A stretch of DNA of 5,353 nucleotides from a virus (taxonomy: Duplodnaviria > Heunggongvirae > Uroviricota > Caudoviricetes): the IMG/VR virus record IMGVR_UViG_2657245634_000006, one strand, 5' to 3'. A program made the translations under genes and the position numbers. This document shows positions 1 through 5,353 of this stretch, one piece after another (position 1 is the first letter of the stretch; each line of letters begins with the position of its first letter). Under the pieces are notes generated by a model. It was not told the origin of the DNA. It saw only the letters and a program-made list of their open reading frames with translations, and ran no database searches.

Positions 1-1085
1 TTGAATCCGTTCTCGACCTGACCGGTAAACTGAATGAGGTTGAGTTCCGTGCAGAAGCCTCCACGTCCGTCATCCCAGCCACGAATAAATTCACCGCGTA
101 AATCAGGCAATTTATTTGTCGGATAAACCTTTGCCAGTTCCGGGTATTCTTCAGCAGAAAAAGCCGCACCGTTGCATTTCAGCCAGCCAGTAGGCGGTGT
201 GGCTGAAGGCCACGGAACAGGCACACCAACGGGTAATGCCGAACCTTCTCCCAAACCAAGGTATACGAGAAGACCGGCAACATCCTTTCCACTCAAATGA
301 GTCAGCGTATTGTCCAGCGGTTGTTTACCTGCCAGCGCATTGTTAATGGTGGTGCTGAATTTCGGGTCATTGTTAATGGCCGCGGCAATTTCTTTCAGTG
401 TGTCCAGTGTGGCTGGCGCACCGTTAATCAGAGCGGTAATAGCGGCCTGAACAAACTCAGTGGTCGCAATCCGCGTGGTGTTATTTCCTGCGGCAGGCGT
501 CGGCGCTTTTGGTTCTCCGGTAAATGTCGGATTATGTTTCTGTGCATACTGGGTATGAGGATCCTGTGCGGCAATGTGGTTTCTCATCTGGTCATCCACA
601 TACAGCCTTAATTCCAGGACTTCATCATCCACGTATTTACGGGTCGCCAGTACCACCGACGGGTCGATTTTCAGCGTAATAGCTTCGGTATTCGTGACAA
701 CCAGAATCATGCGGATAGTCTGGGTACGACCACTGCCTTCCTGCAACTGCGGTTTGTACGTTTCCGGGCAGTTCGCCACCGCAATGAGTACGCCTTCTTC
801 ATCATAAAGCCCAATCTCACGGATCCAGAATCCGCCCTCGTTCTCAGGGATGATTTGCTCCGCAATAATCTGGCTCTGGTTGTTCGGGTCAACACTCAGA
901 AGATTCAGCGGCGCAATGCGTTTCTGGTTAATCAGTTTTGTCTGTGCCGGGTCTGGTGTCGGCAAGACACCATTCGCATCACCAACGGCCATTTGCGTCA
1001 GATTCAGCTTACTGCCGAGCATCGTCGCGTTAGCCAGCCGTGCTGCGCCCTGATTAGTCAGAATGGCGTAGTATTTCACTGTCAT
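1..1085 (-). CDS. H: Tail fiber protein, P2 gpH-like; N-terminal 361 codons, 3' end beyond window start
   Basis: Absent from the ORF track because no stop codon falls in the window. I translated the minus strand by hand in the frame set by ATG at 1085..1083; no TAA/TAG/TGA occurs down to position 3. The ATG overlaps the stop of gene I (ATGA at 1082-1085). Translation reads MTVKYYAILTNQGAARLANATMLGSKLNLTQMAVGDANGVLPTPD..., continues through NPTFTGEPKAPTPAAGNNTTRIATTEFVQAAITALINGAPATLDTLKEIAAAINNDPKF (tail-fiber repeat-like) and ends in-window with WPSATPPTGWLKCNGAAFSAEEYPELAKVYPTNKLPDLRGEFIRGWDDGRGG (tail-collar-like). Position after gene I and the family assignment rest on remembered P2 gene order and tail fiber architecture. 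Confidence 0.8.
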   Translation of the reverse strand, partial: MTVKYYAILTNQGAARLANATMLGSKLNLTQMAVGDANGVLPTPDPAQTKLINQKRIAPLNLLSVDPNNQSQIIAEQIIPENEGGFWIREIGLYDEEGVLIAVANCPETYKPQLQEGSGRTQTIRMILVVTNTEAITLKIDPSVVLATRKYVDDEVLELRLYVDDQMRNHIAAQDPHTQYAQKHNPTFTGEPKAPTPAAGNNTTRIATTEFVQAAITALINGAPATLDTLKEIAAAINNDPKFSTTINNALAGKQPLDNTLTHLSGKDVAGLLVYLGLGEGSALPVGVPVPWPSATPPTGWLKCNGAAFSAEEYPELAKVYPTNKLPDLRGEFIRGWDDGRGGFCTELNLIQFTGQVENGF

Positions 1086-1693
1086 GCGTTTACTCTCAGG
1101 TTATCAATTAAATGAATGGCCGAGGCCGGGAAATAATCCCCTCCGACAATAATGGCCTCCGGGGTGTAGGGATAAACCGTCAGGGCGTCGCCGTGATAGC
1201 ATCCCGCACCGGCAAAAATGTTGCCGGTTGTACTTAAACTGATAGCCAGTCCCGTCAGATGGCGGCTTGCCGGTTTTGCATCAGCAACGAGGCGCTCCAG
1301 CTCCTGATACATTTCCTCGGTAATACCCTGCTCAAGCACGCCAACAACGATGCGGAACGTCCCCGGCTCCTCGTTGAGCTGCCACCACTCCCTCACCTCA
1401 ATCAGATAGCCGAGCGGCTCCACCACACGCCGGATTGCGCCTATAGTGCCCTTATGGCAGTGAATGAAATACGCATCGCGGATAACAGCGCGTTTTGTCG
1501 CTTCCGGCCACTTATCATCCCAGCGGTCAACCGAAAATGACCACGCCAGCCACGGCAGCAGATTTGCCGGGCAGGTGTCCGGGTTCCACAGCTCACGAAT
1601 ACTGACCGGCGTTTTTTCAATTTCCGCACAGGCTTTTGCGGCGGCAACTTCAAGCGGTGATGAGCCGGTCGGCAGCAGTCGCGAATCACTCAT
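1082..1693 (-). CDS. I: Baseplate/tail protein I, P2 gpI-like
   Basis: ORF-track ORF of 203 aa starting MSDSRLLPTGSSPLEVAAAKACAEIEKTPVSIRELWNPD..., which I recognise as the P2 gpI family. ATG at 1693..1691 overlaps the stop of J by 8 nt (ATGAGTGA). It sits between J and H as in P2. Confidence 0.88.
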   Translation of the reverse strand: MSDSRLLPTGSSPLEVAAAKACAEIEKTPVSIRELWNPDTCPANLLPWLAWSFSVDRWDDKWPEATKRAVIRDAYFIHCHKGTIGAIRRVVEPLGYLIEVREWWQLNEEPGTFRIVVGVLEQGITEEMYQELERLVADAKPASRHLTGLAISLSTTGNIFAGAGCYHGDALTVYPYTPEAIIVGGDYFPASAIHLIDNLRVNA

Positions 1694-2594
1694 CCGAGCC
1701 TCCGGTCACGACGCGGTATTCGGTACAGAAAGACGCCTGCGTACTGTTGAGCACGATGTCGGCCAGTGGTGCAGCCAGTTCGACACGCTGCACACCTTCC
1801 ACATGCAAAGCGGCATAAATGGCAGACAGACGGATGTCGCGCCCCAGCCGGTGCTGTGCCGTGATGTACGCTTCCAGTTTTTTCACGGCGGCAGCGCGTA
1901 TGGGTTCGCTTTCGGGACCAGGGTAAAGGTAAAGCGTGGCGTTTATCTGGTATTCAACGATGGCGGCAGACTGCACGGTCACGCGGTCGGCCACCGGCCT
2001 GACGTCCTCGCCATTAAGGGCGTTACGCACCACAGCCAGCAGGTCTTCGGATGCGACACCGTTATTTTCACGTGACAGTACGGAGATGGTGACGCAGGCC
2101 GGAGACGGACTGGTGACAGAGATATCCGCGACACGCCCGTCGGCACTGCGACCATGATACTGATAGGCTCCCACCGACCCGGCGACGCTTAAACCTTCAA
2201 ACGCCTGCTGAATACGCAGACGATAATCGGTGTCAGACTCCATCACTGCCGGTGTCGGCGGGATGGTCGAATCATCTGCCGGGGTGATAGTCAGGCGCGT
2301 GGTGTTGTAATTGGCACCAATCACATCAAGGTCATTACCGGCAGCACAGGCCAGCATCACCGCCCGTGCGGCCTCATTCACACGCTGACGCCAGATAAGC
2401 TCACGATAAGCATTTTCCTCCAGCAGTTTGACGAGAGGCTCAGATTCCAGCGTCAGGGTACGGGCGACCGCCTCCTGCTGGTCTTCCGGGTAAAGGGAAA
2501 TCAGTGTCGCCTTGCGTTCGGCGAGAATGGTTTCAAAATCCAGCTCCTCGACCACATCCGGTGCGGGTAGCTGGTTCAGGTCGATAATCGGCAT
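1686..2594 (-). CDS. J: Baseplate assembly protein J, P2 gpJ-like
   Basis: 302 aa ORF starting MPIIDLNQLPAPDVVEELDFETILAERKATLISLYPEDQQEAVARTLTLESEPLVKLLEENAYRELIWRQR..., recognised as baseplate J family. ATG at 2594..2592 lies 4 nt downstream of the W stop codon (2599-2601 on plus). Synteny W-J-I. Confidence 0.9.
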   Translation of the reverse strand: MPIIDLNQLPAPDVVEELDFETILAERKATLISLYPEDQQEAVARTLTLESEPLVKLLEENAYRELIWRQRVNEAARAVMLACAAGNDLDVIGANYNTTRLTITPADDSTIPPTPAVMESDTDYRLRIQQAFEGLSVAGSVGAYQYHGRSADGRVADISVTSPSPACVTISVLSRENNGVASEDLLAVVRNALNGEDVRPVADRVTVQSAAIVEYQINATLYLYPGPESEPIRAAAVKKLEAYITAQHRLGRDIRLSAIYAALHVEGVQRVELAAPLADIVLNSTQASFCTEYRVVTGGSDE

Positions 2595-2598
2595 GGTT

Positions 2599-2946
2599 TC
2601 AACTCACAGGGATGGTTAACGAAAGTGGCTGGCCGGTGTCGTTGTGCTGGCCGGTTAACGTGACCGTCATTCGCCCGTCAAAACTGCGCTCAGTGGTGAC
2701 GGATGACAGGGTGACGCGGGGTTCCCATTTCAGCACCGCCATGTAACAGGCGACCTTAATCTGCAACTCAAGCGCCGGGGTCTGCGGCTGGTCAATCATT
2801 GATGCCAGCAACGAGCCGTAATCACGACGCATCACCCGTGAGCCGACCGGCGTGCGCAGGATATCGCCGATACTCTGGCTGATATGCTCAAGGTCAGTGA
2901 CAGTCAGGCCATCACTGCGATTCATTCCGAGATAACGCGCAGTCAT
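2599..2946 (-). CDS. W: Baseplate assembly protein W, P2 gpW-like (T4 gp25 family)
   Basis: 115 aa ORF starting MTARYLGMNRSDGLTVTDLEHISQSIGDILRTPVGSRVMRRDYGSLLASMID..., recognised as the GPW/gp25 baseplate wedge family. ATG at 2946..2944 overlaps the V stop (ATGA at 2943-2946). Confidence 0.9.
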   Translation of the reverse strand: MTARYLGMNRSDGLTVTDLEHISQSIGDILRTPVGSRVMRRDYGSLLASMIDQPQTPALELQIKVACYMAVLKWEPRVTLSSVTTERSFDGRMTVTLTGQHNDTGQPLSLTIPVS

Positions 2947-3578
2947 AGAGGTCCCCCGGTTGTGCCGCCGCTGTCGCCGGGGTGTTTATGGGTATGCAGT
3001 ACCTTACCGTTTGATGAGAGTTCACCGCCGGTGTGTTCAATGTTGCCGCGCATCGTCCCGCCCTTCTGCACTTCCAGCGTGCCGGTAGTCAGTTTGTTAG
3101 TGCAGACCACTTCCGGTGTGTCCAGGGTGACACGGGTTGACGCTTTCACCGTGACCACCGGTACCGTGGCAGTAACAGAATCAGAAGCCGTCACGCTGGC
3201 CGTTTTAATTCCGCTTACCGTGAGTGCACTGGTTTCGGGTTCATACTCAATCACCGCCCCGTCAGGGAAACGGATATGCAGGGCATCCGCCGACACAGAC
3301 GGCGAGGGGTTATCGCCGGAATAAATCCCCGGCAGAACGAACGCCGTGTCGAGTTCACCGCCCACGGCCAGAATCAGCACCTGCTCCCCCACGGAAGGTG
3401 CCCACCATGTGCGCGAACGACCGGCACGATGGGTCAGCCACTGAAGCCAGTCAGTGCACATGCCGCCGGTCTGCACACGGCAGCGACCGGCGTTAAGGTC
3501 GGTTTCGACGACTAGGCCGGTACGAATCATGTTGCGCAGTGCGCGCGCGAGTTCCTGAATATTTGCGAGAGTGTTCAT
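2943..3578 (-). CDS. V: Baseplate spike / assembly protein V, P2 gpV-like
   Basis: The ORF track gives 2943..3596 with a TTG start (plus 3594-3596 is caa). I place the start at the in-frame ATG at 3578..3576, giving 211 aa beginning MNTLANIQELARALRNMIRTGLVVETDLNAGRCRVQTGG..., which matches my memory of the P2 gpV N-terminus. No obvious Shine-Dalgarno precedes either start, so the start is not fully certain. Confidence 0.87.
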   Translation of the reverse strand: MNTLANIQELARALRNMIRTGLVVETDLNAGRCRVQTGGMCTDWLQWLTHRAGRSRTWWAPSVGEQVLILAVGGELDTAFVLPGIYSGDNPSPSVSADALHIRFPDGAVIEYEPETSALTVSGIKTASVTASDSVTATVPVVTVKASTRVTLDTPEVVCTNKLTTGTLEVQKGGTMRGNIEHTGGELSSNGKVLHTHKHPGDSGGTTGGPL

Positions 3579-3661
3579 GCATGTGAGATTGCACAATATA
3601 TAAAAGTTATGCTATCTGGATTCATTTGTAGAACTACCAGACAACATTCAAGGAGAGCGTA
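3579..3661. promoter_or_regulatory. Divergent intergenic control region between V (minus) and cargo ORF (plus); putative promoters, positions uncertain
   Basis: 83-bp AT-rich spacer. Plus strand has TATATATAAAAG (3597-3608) as a possible -10 for the cargo gene, with a weak -35 (TTCATG 3574-3579 or TTGCAC 3589-3594). On the minus strand TATATT (3600..3595) is a possible -10 for V, with no good -35. The dyad TTGTAGAACTACCAGACAA (3626-3644) has TGT-N11-ACA outer halves resembling the P2 late-promoter activator element (consensus TGT-N12-ACA). All are visual matches only. Confidence 0.3.
3650..3655 (+). promoter_or_regulatory. Shine-Dalgarno sequence (AAGGAG) of the cargo ORF
   Basis: AAGGAG with a 6-nt spacer to ATG at 3662, read directly from the sequence. 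Confidence 0.6.
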
Positions 3662-4447
3662 ATGGTCAGCTATAATGTGACTAATGTGTGGGGGCTAATC
3701 GTTTTTTTCCTTTGTAGCTTTGCAGTATTAGCATTTTTTAGCTTTGGTAAAAGTAACCTTATGAGGCTTATTGCACATTATTTCAATTTTGGATATTCAG
3801 ACAAAAAATTAAAAAGACTTGACCGCGAGTGGCGCGACATTCAACTATTTAAAATAATTAACGGAATCAATGTATCAGGCATTGAAAATGTGAGAATGAT
3901 ACAGCAGGGACTGATTGATGGAAAACTAAAAACATCGTATTTTTTCCTTACTCGCATCTGGGGTGACATAACAAAACCACCACACATAATTAAAACAATA
4001 ATTGTAATTCTGGCCAGTATTTTTTACATTCTTCTCGCATGTTACATACACAACGAACAATCCGTTATAGTAAGGGATGCCATAGGCATACCATATAAAA
4101 ACATGATGTACTATGTTTATAGTGACAAAGTTCTTTTATCCTTCAAAAATAAAGCAGTTGAATTTAATAAAACTTATAGCCTTGCCGATTGCAAGAGACT
4201 GCAAAACGTATTTATAAAAGACACACTTCCTGAGATCGCCTGCAATAAGCTCTTACAGCTAAACGAGGAGGACTCCGAATGGTTAAGTCAGGAGATTAAA
4301 GATAATAACAGTCACAAAAAAGCATTATTAATACTATCCCTCGTCTATTTCACTTCAGGTCTGGTTATATTCCTGTCATATACAAAATTCTTTTACGCCA
4401 ATAAGAAGGTTTTAGAATACAAAGCATCAAATAAAAATCACTCATAA
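3662..4447 (+). CDS. Hypothetical integral membrane protein with three predicted TM helices; AT-rich accessory (moron) gene at the S/V junction
   Basis: 261 aa ORF on the strand opposite to all tail genes. AAGGAG at 3650-3655 lies 6 nt upstream of ATG 3662. TAA stop at 4445-4447 is followed by a hairpin. Hydrophobic stretches at aa 9-28 (VWGLIVFFLCSFAVLAFFSF), aa 109-129 (IIKTIIVILASIFYILLACYI) and aa 221-240 (ALLILSLVYFTSGLVIFLSY). Codon usage is strongly A/T-biased, unlike the flanking genes. I recognise no catalytic or nucleotide-binding motif. Confidence 0.8.
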   Translation: MVSYNVTNVWGLIVFFLCSFAVLAFFSFGKSNLMRLIAHYFNFGYSDKKLKRLDREWRDIQLFKIINGINVSGIENVRMIQQGLIDGKLKTSYFFLTRIWGDITKPPHIIKTIIVILASIFYILLACYIHNEQSVIVRDAIGIPYKNMMYYVYSDKVLLSFKNKAVEFNKTYSLADCKRLQNVFIKDTLPEIACNKLLQLNEEDSEWLSQEIKDNNSHKKALLILSLVYFTSGLVIFLSYTKFFYANKKVLEYKASNKNHS

Positions 4448-4452
4448 ACCTC

Positions 4453-4489
4453 TAAACATTGAGCGACCAGCATGGCCGCTCAATGTTTA
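4453..4489. terminator. Candidate bidirectional intrinsic terminator hairpin between convergent cargo ORF and gene S
   Basis: Read directly: AAACATTGAGCG (4454-4465) and CGCTCAATGTTT (4477-4488) are perfect reverse complements, with 4453 T and 4489 A extending the stem to 13 bp. The 11-nt loop ACCAGCATGGC can pair further (CCA/TGG). It is followed on plus by TTTAATT and on minus by a T-rich but interrupted tract. It lies 5 nt after the cargo TAA stop and about 30 nt after the S stop. Confidence 0.5.
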
Positions 4490-4518
4490 ATTGCGCATCA
4501 GCCTCTGACTGGATAAAA

Positions 4519-4971
4519 CTAACGCTCAAGGTGAGCCAGGATAATCTCTTCAATCATCTGCACATCCTCACAGGTAAAGCCGAGCAGAGGACGCGCCGGA
4601 TAATCAATTTTCTTACCGTCTTTCCGGGTTTCTTCCGACAGACCGAACTGATGCACGCTGGCGATTTTCGGTGACTTCCCGCCGTAAAACTCCATTGATG
4701 CCTGTTCCGGGCTGGCGCGGATATGCAAAAAACGACTGGTGATAAGTTTCGCAAACATTTTTCGCTTAACACGACCAGTCTTTTTTCTGGCGCTCTGCTG
4801 CTGGCGTGGCGCGTAGGGTGTGCCGTCCGGGGCTTTCTGAGCCATCACCCGACGTTGCTGACTCTGCCGCAGACGTTTCGCCAGTTCGGCGCTCAGTCGC
4901 CGACGCCCTGACGGTGACAGCGATTCAGTCAGTCCGGTCAGCCGGTCTTCAAAACGCTTAAACTCATTCAT
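4519..4971 (-). CDS. S: Tail completion protein S, P2 gpS-like
   Basis: 150 aa ORF starting MNEFKRFEDRLTGLTESLSPSGRRRLSAELAKRLRQSQQRRVMAQKAPDGTPYAPRQQQSARKK..., recognised as the P2 gpS family. ATG at 4971..4969 overlaps the R stop by 8 nt (ATGAATGA). TAG stop at 4521..4519. Confidence 0.9.
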   Translation of the reverse strand: MNEFKRFEDRLTGLTESLSPSGRRRLSAELAKRLRQSQQRRVMAQKAPDGTPYAPRQQQSARKKTGRVKRKMFAKLITSRFLHIRASPEQASMEFYGGKSPKIASVHQFGLSEETRKDGKKIDYPARPLLGFTCEDVQMIEEIILAHLER

Positions 4972-5353
4972 CCCACTTGCTCACCAGTTCGCCATTGATA
5001 TAAAGCTCCACCGGGCGGGTGACCGGCTCCGGCGGCGTGGGTTCCGGGATATTCTTCACATGCAGCGCACCGTCAACCTCACTGACCAGCGTGCGCTCGG
5101 TCAGCATCAGGCTGATGCTGATATCAAAGCTGCTGTCATTGTTGATGTCTGCATAAAACGTGAAGCCCTTTTTCTGGCCTTCGTCGGTGGTCATGATGTC
5201 GGGCTGATTTTCCCGCAGCCACGCCAGCACCGGCACGATGAGCAGGTCAAAATCACCGGTAAAGTCGGTCACAATGACATTGAGCGTGTAACGCTTTTCA
5301 AATGACAGCGACGCCGCCAGTGTGGAGGCAATACTCCCGTTATCCACGAATAT
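4964..5353 (-). CDS. R: Tail completion protein R, P2 gpR-like; C-terminal part, 5' end probably beyond window end
   Basis: The ORF track gives 4964..5347 from a GTG (plus 5345-5347 is cac), but the frame stays open through the last two in-window codons (5348-5353). The protein (...VDNGSIASTLAASLSFEKRYTLNVIVTDFTGDFDLLIVPVLAWLRENQPDIMTTDEGQKKGFTFYADINND...) matches my memory of P2 gpR, which I recall as longer than 127 aa. TGA stop at 4966..4964. Confidence 0.8.
   Translation of the reverse strand: MFVDNGSIASTLAASLSFEKRYTLNVIVTDFTGDFDLLIVPVLAWLRENQPDIMTTDEGQKKGFTFYADINNDSSFDISISLMLTERTLVSEVDGALHVKNIPEPTPPEPVTRPVELYINGELVSKWDE

Follow-up and report, generated by a model that had tools for sequence, protein, structure and literature searches.

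The AT-rich orf30 cassette between tail genes V and S of P2-like phages, a candidate exclusion or defence locus

In phages related to P2, three regions carry foreign genes: the TO region, Z/fun and orf30 (PMC3091744). The slot of orf30, between tail genes V and S, holds a different 741-bp open reading frame (ORF) in phage R18C (PMC6823313). Studies of defence hotspots in P2-like phages centre on A-Q (old/tin) and on Z/fun (PMC9122126; PMC9519451; bioRxiv 10.1101/2024.10.15.618418), and a 2026 survey places defence genes "within the tail genes" at a resolution that does not separate the V-S slot (PMC13586616). In CFT073, another slot of the P2-like prophage, G-FI, holds neaT; this AT-rich moron lies on the opposite strand, is described as "maintained in an un-ameliorated state" and improves bacteraemia fitness (PMC3573123). 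Our literature search, whose incomplete coverage does not prove absence, returned no paper in which orf30 is given a function or its family is described as confined to this slot. Here we analyse a 5,353-nt stretch of a virus genome (IMG/VR record IMGVR_UViG_2657245634_000006; hereafter the window) in which an AT-rich island containing orf30 interrupts the tail genes.

The window corresponds to the tail region of a P2-type phage, and all its genes but orf30 lie on the minus strand. P2 (AF063097) aligns to it in one piece (1263–5353), and the island together with both of its non-coding ends is 99.5% identical to the P2 sequence, where orf30 is called "nonessential" (plus strand in the window). 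The island is thus a known feature, P2 orf30 (AF063097 / NC_001895; AAD03281.1; PHROG 2407), found in P2 at the same V-S position, in the same orientation and with the same PV activator site and O-operon terminator; it amounts to a rediscovery of a P2 annotation dating from 1998. Across V and the island, a prophage of E. coli O111:H21 strain 15A also matches the window at 100% identity. Because orf30 is annotated in P2 and listed in the literature as a variable region, a classic one, its presence as first noted adds nothing alone. The remaining interest lies in the function of a widespread, slot-locked and fast-evolving family of predicted membrane proteins. The explanation that we favour, and consider moderately probable, is that of a self-contained orf30 cassette, an old resident of its slot with a maintained low G+C content, whose most likely product would be an exclusion or defence factor.

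Low G+C in a fixed slot

Coordinates are positions in the window, where the island as first noted covers 3579–4452. Its G+C content is 0.341 against 0.558 for everything outside it (exact counts; binomial z = -12.9). The values for single genes are 0.337 in orf30, 0.596 in V and 0.543 in S. In a 200-bp sliding profile the G+C content goes from 0.58–0.65 in 3201–3600 to 0.32–0.37 across 3601–4500 and then back up to 0.50–0.60; leftward of the island every 874-bp window is at or above 0.509. An unconstrained likelihood segmentation with two free boundaries delimits 3558–4460. The shift towards AT affects all codon positions (GC1/2/3 of 0.39/0.27/0.35 in orf30 vs 0.62/0.52/0.64 in V). The sharp drop over about 0.87 kb relative to adjacent V, on which the original prediction was built, is therefore borne out by the sliding profile and the segmentation alike.

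Relatives with an empty slot define the edges more closely. In fiAA91-ss, MET_P1_103_31 and KC618326 the V ATG and the S stop codon are separated by a 66-bp spacer of 58–61% G+C, without sequence relation to the slot DNA of the window, and homology to these phages ends exactly at 3578/3579 (V ATG) and 4518/4519 (S stop codon). These breaks indicate that the replaced segment is 3579–4518 (940 bp), not 3579–4452; it takes in the PV promoter region and the terminator hairpin, plus 29 bases past the hairpin. Thus the left edge proposed earlier, directly upstream of the V start, holds, while the right edge, placed at the hairpin, moves to 4518. The hairpin announced before the S stop is indeed present at 4453–4489; its 17-nt arms show 94% complementarity, and the fold z is close to -4.7 on both strands (-4.77 on the plus strand, -4.66 on the minus strand). 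Direct repeats or a target-site duplication were searched for at the island junctions and none was found, in agreement with the original prediction. The hallmarks of a transposable element or insertion sequence are likewise absent, the junctions being free of repeats and the single ORF free of a transposase domain.

The 940-bp unit is present in 21 phage records at 89.9–99.5% identity, all 21 holding at least 80% of its length. The island was found in 464 of 5426 complete E. coli genomes (about 9%), at 483 places that are all chromosomal, and 460 of these 464 genomes hold at least 80% of the 940 bp at 90–100% identity to the window; no copy was found in the plasmid collection. Gene V is present in 1581 of the 5426 genomes (1810 places) and an empty-type junction in 1106 (about 1218 places). 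Counted from the 1810 V places, about 27% of the E. coli V-S slots hold orf30, about 67% are empty (66-bp GC-rich spacer) and about 6% hold something else. Among the 82 viral loci with both V and S (78 of 80 viral contigs and four reference phage records), 59 slots are empty, 18 hold an orf30 gene, which is frameshifted in one case, and five carry other cargo at 34–38% G+C. The 66-bp spacer stands in place of the 940 bp in the three phages named above and in 56 viral contigs. Alignment with P2-like relatives thus shows that most of them hold the spacer and that the island is not common to all. There is extra DNA between genes that are adjacent in relatives, its composition deviates, and the label of moron is fair for the orf30 cassette.

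The original prediction went further and took the composition of the island as the signature of acquisition from a low-GC donor. Recent capture from a low-GC bacterial donor by illegitimate recombination, the GC gap being un-ameliorated foreign DNA, would account for the sharp drop and the AT bias at the three codon positions; it would also fit the lack of the island in most close relatives, the absence of transposon scars, and the treatment of the orf30 region as horizontally acquired in the literature (PMC3091744). The distant relatives argue against it. When 1.84 billion representative proteins were searched exhaustively with a profile, 44 relatives came up, most full-length members having 250–270 residues, and a word-indexed search of 5.8 billion proteins returned five Orf30 clusters. 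The genomic context was readable for eleven distant members, and in nine it is the V-S slot of P2-like elements. Seven of these are flanked by V and S, have the orientation seen in P2 and belong to P2-like prophages that are otherwise complete (their sources being Serratia ureilytica, S. nevei, S. quinivorans and other Enterobacterales or metagenomes), and two adjoin V in decayed remnants, one of S. rubidaea (Ogr-J'-W'-V-gene-S') and one with the order J'-W-V-gene-gene. The other two contexts are uninformative: one is the end of an Enterobacter contig, and the other comes from two short contigs on which a DsbA-like gene is the neighbour. Across the 44 representatives and eleven contexts, the analysis brought up no homologue in a setting recognisably unlike this slot or in a low-GC non-phage organism, and no donor emerged. 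These contexts suggest that PHROG 2407 is essentially confined to the V-S slot of P2-like (Peduoviridae) phages of Enterobacterales.

The distant members are 21–27% identical to P2 Orf30, and the proteins of the same loci are 64–81% (V), 64–79% (J), 54–71% (W) and 33–49% (S) identical to those of the window. Their orf30-family genes all have 30–38% G+C between flanks of 50–62%. Such equal AT-richness, on backbones whose structural proteins are down to 43–81% identity, points to a maintained property of the family rather than to the footprint of a recent import, and it calls for caution, since the sharp discontinuity seen here does not date the acquisition. Synonymous divergence (dS) among E. 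coli alleles leads the same way: the value for orf30 (0.129) is similar to those for V (0.081) and S (0.118), which indicates co-inheritance with the flanks and an island that is not younger than they are. The identity of 90–100% between the E. coli copies and the window further implies that alleles diverged within E. coli. A recent import is thus quite improbable. What survives of the horizontal-transfer claim is an accessory cassette in a variable tail slot; the recent low-GC acquisition does not. The Orf30 family appears to be an old, fast-evolving slot resident rather than a fresh low-GC import.

The Orf30 protein, its selection and its alleles

Orf30 matches phrog_2407 over residues 1–261 (E = 5.5e-149), as do 24 of 24 aligned relatives; PHROG 2407, whose function is annotated as unknown, is the only family that it matches. 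The 24-member alignment keeps three hydrophobic segments and, in the first loop, a "DxQLF...G(I/V)NV...DA" motif; Gly68, Gly87 and Ile212 are conserved, Cys194 is invariant and Cys177 is present in 23 of the 24 members, with no other conserved cysteine. The mean net charge in the family is +5.1 for loop 1 (29–108), -0.5 for loop 2 (132–219) and +1.7 for the C-tail. By the positive-inside rule, Orf30 is predicted with good confidence to be a three-pass inner-membrane protein, N-out/C-in, with loop 1 cytoplasmic and loop 2 periplasmic. The location of Cys177 and Cys194 in the periplasmic loop makes a disulfide likely. An AlphaFold2 (AF2) model built with the 24-sequence alignment (predicted local distance difference test, pLDDT, 86; predicted template modelling score, pTM, 0.76) has helices at 6–40, 109–133 and 202–260, a helical loop 1, and a four-stranded sheet with two helices in loop 2. 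One member of the family (P0017, 250 residues), carried by short metagenomic contigs without P2 backbone match (L096, 66–1743, and L097), lies divergent from a DsbA/thioredoxin-like gene, a neighbour that suggestively fits the conserved periplasmic cysteine pair.

Selection was analysed on a set of 19 alleles (18 loci and the window), from which the frameshifted one was left out. Eighteen of the 19 alleles are intact. The pooled ratio of nonsynonymous to synonymous polymorphism (pN/pS) of orf30 is 0.46, with 0.32 in loop 1, 0.28 in loop 2 and 1.07 in the N-terminal transmembrane segment. These ratios show Orf30 to be under purifying selection, which is concentrated in the two soluble loops and relaxed in the N-terminal transmembrane segment.

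The family has diverged much more quickly than the phage backbone, and its identity follows backbone identity only loosely (Spearman 0.42). Disparities are large in some pairs: two loci (L086 and L088) with V proteins 94% identical have slot genes only 45% identical, and between the window and a third locus (L093) these values are 81% and 23%. A decayed P2-like remnant (J'-W-V; L092, 8001–9658) carries two tandem PHROG 2407 paralogues of 256 and 252 residues that are 26% identical. These comparisons suggest that phages exchange alleles through recombination in the conserved genes on either side, with repeated loss of the gene or its replacement by other AT-rich cargo. A fixed position, fast divergence, allele exchange and stacking of paralogues are together expected of a gene in conflict with other genetic elements. 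The gene is moreover intact in decayed prophages, namely one of Serratia (L087), the remnant with the tandem paralogues, and the P2-like remnant of E. coli B REL606, where S is truncated, the head and lysis genes are gone, and the 786-bp orf30 gene is intact. In this last element (NC_012967, 2100409–2122347) orf30 is ECB_RS10570, beside V, and the truncated S is fused next to a portal fragment.

Layout of the cassette and candidate function

The features of the window are collected in Table 1; P2 annotation was transferred by adding 762 to the locus coordinate.

Table 1. Features of the window and of the 940-bp cassette
Feature	Position	Strand	Basis or remark
H (partial)	left end of window	-	P2-type tail gene
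I	1082–1693	-	P2-type tail gene
J	1686–2594	-	P2-type tail gene
W	2599–2946	-	P2-type tail gene
V, baseplate spike; left conserved anchor of the slot	2943–3578	-	P2 annotation mapped at offset +762
Left non-coding end, 36% GC; PV late promoter (-) and orf30 Shine-Dalgarno AAGGAG at 3650–3655 (+)	3579–3661		P2 annotation
Ogr/delta activator-binding site of PV	3620–3647	-	AF063097: "activator binding site; activation of pV promoter"
orf30, 261 residues, PHROG 2407	3662–4447	+	P2 annotation, profile match
Right non-coding end, 46% GC, reaching the S stop codon	4448–4518		missing from empty-slot relatives
Hairpin, annotated "putative rho-independent terminator for O operon" (-)	4453–4489		P2 annotation, inverted repeat
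S, tail completion; right conserved anchor of the slot	4519–4971	-	P2 annotation
R	from 4964	-	P2-type gene

The orf30 gene is transcribed against both the V operon and the O operon. Its AAGGAG sits 6 nt before the ATG, and the hairpin, which could also terminate orf30 on the plus strand, starts 6 nt past its stop codon. Within its left 83 bp the island carries the site, annotated in P2, where the activator of the essential PV late promoter binds. The cassette is thus not purely foreign cargo, since its ends carry the annotated PV activator site and the O-operon terminator. Allele p-distances are 0.025 in the left end and 0.022 in the right end, against 0.066 in orf30; the stronger conservation of the non-coding ends fits a regulatory role for them. 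As to the left anchor, the program-made ORF list places the start of V at a TTG (3596) that precedes the P2-annotated ATG at 3578 by 18 nt; the homology break with empty-slot phages exactly at this ATG supports 3578 as the true V start.

The other slot variants solve the same layout in other ways. A CACAAC-type box stands at an equivalent distance from the V ATG in other variants, and short boxes of this type recur near the slot edges in several of them; we read these as candidate Ogr-site requirements, not as recombination scars. In the empty slot, the 66 bp are taken up by a GC-rich hairpin and a CACAA box: in fiAA91-ss (L002, 2820–2885) and two further loci (L003 and L004) the sole S-V hairpin (GCCGCCGG...CCGGCGGC) has the CACAA activator-type box on one side and the V start on the other. 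This hairpin is inside the presumed PV promoter, so that O-operon termination and PV initiation would share the 66 bp. In Serratia and other relatives the same hairpin-plus-box spacer adjoins V and is followed by the orf30-family gene, whereas the P2-type cassette has its own AT-rich PV region instead and a different hairpin on the S side. At two loci (L086, 8776–8804; L088, 8779–8801), unlike P2, the 3' ends of the orf30-family gene and of S overlap convergently by about 23–29 nt, with no hairpin between them.

The cassette can be pictured as a three-part unit made of a replacement PV promoter with its Ogr site, an opposite-strand orf30 with a strong ribosome-binding site, and a bidirectional hairpin that would terminate both the late O-operon and the orf30 transcripts. 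Such a layout would make an accessory gene expressible without antisense reading into the tail genes. Orf30 would be made in the lysogen and insert in the inner membrane; expression from the prophage is, we infer, fairly likely. As a speculation, any promoter upstream of orf30 would be separated from the start codon of the gene by the Ogr site, so that orf30 transcription could be obstructed by late activation of PV. Orf30 would then hinder incoming phages, either through a block of DNA entry (superinfection exclusion) or through a membrane-acting abortive response. This anti-phage role, protecting the lysogen against other phages, is the likeliest function, though one that we put forward tentatively. 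Guilt by position points to it, some of the other V-S cargos being defence-like: an AAA+TIR protein (PDC-S59), a RelA/SpoT protein (PDC-S33) and a sub-threshold HNH-like protein. A bolder and more doubtful proposal is that PHROG 2407 is an overlooked, slot-locked and hypervariable family of inner-membrane immunity or exclusion proteins of Peduoviridae, a third anti-phage locus of P2, with alleles swapped between near-identical backbones and stacked in tandem, and with a low G+C content that would be actively maintained, e.g. by H-NS-dependent control.

Several observations weigh against the favoured reading. The P2 annotation of orf30 says "nonessential" only, without an assigned function, and about 70% of the close relatives do without the gene. 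One allele (L073, slot of 939 bp) has a 1-nt deletion and hence a frameshift, a sign of cargo decay, and the overall pN/pS of 0.46 is a weaker constraint than that on V (0.19) or S (0.08). A plus-strand scan of 3540–3661 gave no convincing -35/-10 pair for a sigma-70 consensus promoter of orf30. Two family members (L085 and L096/L097) are not demonstrably in the V-S slot. Scans of Orf30 against Pfam, NCBIfam and PADLOC (PADLOC-DB 2.0) gave no match, the PADLOC scan of the 24 relatives gave a single marginal one (E = 0.0067), and comparison of the model with PDB and BFVD gave no significant match; without a family or structural match, it is context that the anti-phage role stands on.

Lysogenic conversion is a plausible but less probable alternative in which Orf30 alters envelope physiology or virulence of the host (stress tolerance, aggregation, serum or phagocyte resistance) rather than acting on phages. 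A predicted membrane protein with a periplasmic domain, kept in decayed prophages, would suit it, and neaT offers a precedent as an AT-rich opposite-strand moron aiding bacteraemia fitness (PMC3573123). Fast evolution with allele shuffling and tandem divergent paralogues nevertheless fit conflict better, the recognisable slot cargos look like defence genes, and the Pfam and NCBIfam scans detected no virulence-related domain. A role in the phage cycle itself (lysis timing, DNA ejection or entry, or interplay with satellite P4), dispensable only in the laboratory, would explain why the family is confined to P2-like phages and fixed beside the spike gene V, near tail-completion and lysis genes; the 5' untranslated region of orf30 also overlaps the Ogr-binding site, so that late activation could switch the gene. 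Yet orf30 is annotated as nonessential, about 70% of close relatives lack it with nothing in its place, it is transcribed against the late operons, it is intact in remnants unable to make particles, and its alleles do not co-vary with V. We regard such a role as very unlikely.

It is also conceivable that the ORF is incidental and that the AT-rich block acts as DNA, e.g. for H-NS nucleation or as an insulator between the late operons. AT-richness is kept across the family, synonymous sites included, as this would predict. But 18 of 19 alleles keep the frame intact, both soluble loops have a pN/pS of about 0.3, motifs and the cysteine pair persist at identities as low as about 20%, AF2 models the protein with confidence, and an empty slot works with a 66-bp GC-rich spacer. 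An action at the DNA level is therefore extremely unlikely. The favoured reading, a long-resident cassette for an exclusion or defence protein, turns a 25-year-old ORF described as "nonessential, function unknown" into a testable candidate that about 9% of complete E. coli genomes carry, that of REL606 among them.

Other occupants of the slot and known systems

The five slots with other cargo are diverse. Two of them (L040 and L046, 838 bp) encode a 251-residue HNH-like protein, its Pfam match being below threshold, on a backbone whose S is only about 54% identical. A slot of 1721 bp (L034) encodes a 508-residue AAA+TIR protein matching PADLOC PDC-S59, a candidate family. In a slot of 1031 bp (L068) a 247-residue protein without a match has its start codon exactly 83 nt from V, as in P2; this is probably the R18C-type ORF. 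The last one (L077, 1305 bp) encodes a 366-residue RelA/SpoT protein that matches PADLOC PDC-S33, also a candidate family. This slot keeps the old hairpin and activator box on the S side and has a second GACACAAC box on the V side, which suggests that the insertion brought or rebuilt the PV activator site. At one further locus (L095, 5965–6899) two extra plus-strand genes lie between V and the orf30-family gene. The first encodes 180 residues with an HExxH motif and no Pfam match, the second a 133-residue DUF7480 protein with a lipoprotein-like signal (…LTGC); such a pair might be of the effector/immunity type.

Outside the slot, the differences between the window and P2 are confined to genes I and H, further left. 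Similarity to P2 stops at about 1257–1263, inside gene I, which encodes 203 residues in the window vs 176 in P2; the C-terminal part of the window I and the adjoining tail-fibre gene H match MET_P1_103_31, KC618326 and pro483-type phages. This breakpoint looks like a mosaic junction that swaps a host-range module. In the REL606 remnant (L090) the A-Q hotspot holds an ABC-three-component system and an AAA ATPase, and the G-FI slot a glycosyltransferase.

Among known exclusion systems, P22 SieA and T4 Imm are small phage-encoded multi-pass inner-membrane proteins that each act alone to exclude superinfecting phages. No sequence or fold similarity between Orf30 and proteins of this type is demonstrated; their architecture and single-gene nature match those predicted for Orf30, which by analogy might work like them.

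Another parallel is neaT, like orf30 a single, opposite-strand, very AT-rich gene for a membrane protein in a P2 moron slot, whose homologues stay AT-rich relative to their own genomes (PMC3573123). It differs in its slot, G-FI, its acyltransferase domain, the spread of its homologues across phyla and its rarity in P2-like phages, whereas no known domain is seen in Orf30, whose family is restricted to P2-like phages. As an occupant of the V-S slot, neaT is ruled out by its G-FI location (PMC3573123).

Parallels to the slot as a whole are found within P2 itself. Like the V-S slot, old/tin (A-Q) and Z/fun (G-FI) are non-essential, AT-rich and variable, and the V-S slot shares with them the presence of defence-like cargo. 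The difference lies in the diversity of what they hold: hundreds of unrelated cargo families pass through the old/tin and Z/fun hotspots, while the V-S slot is either empty or dominated by one family, that of Orf30.

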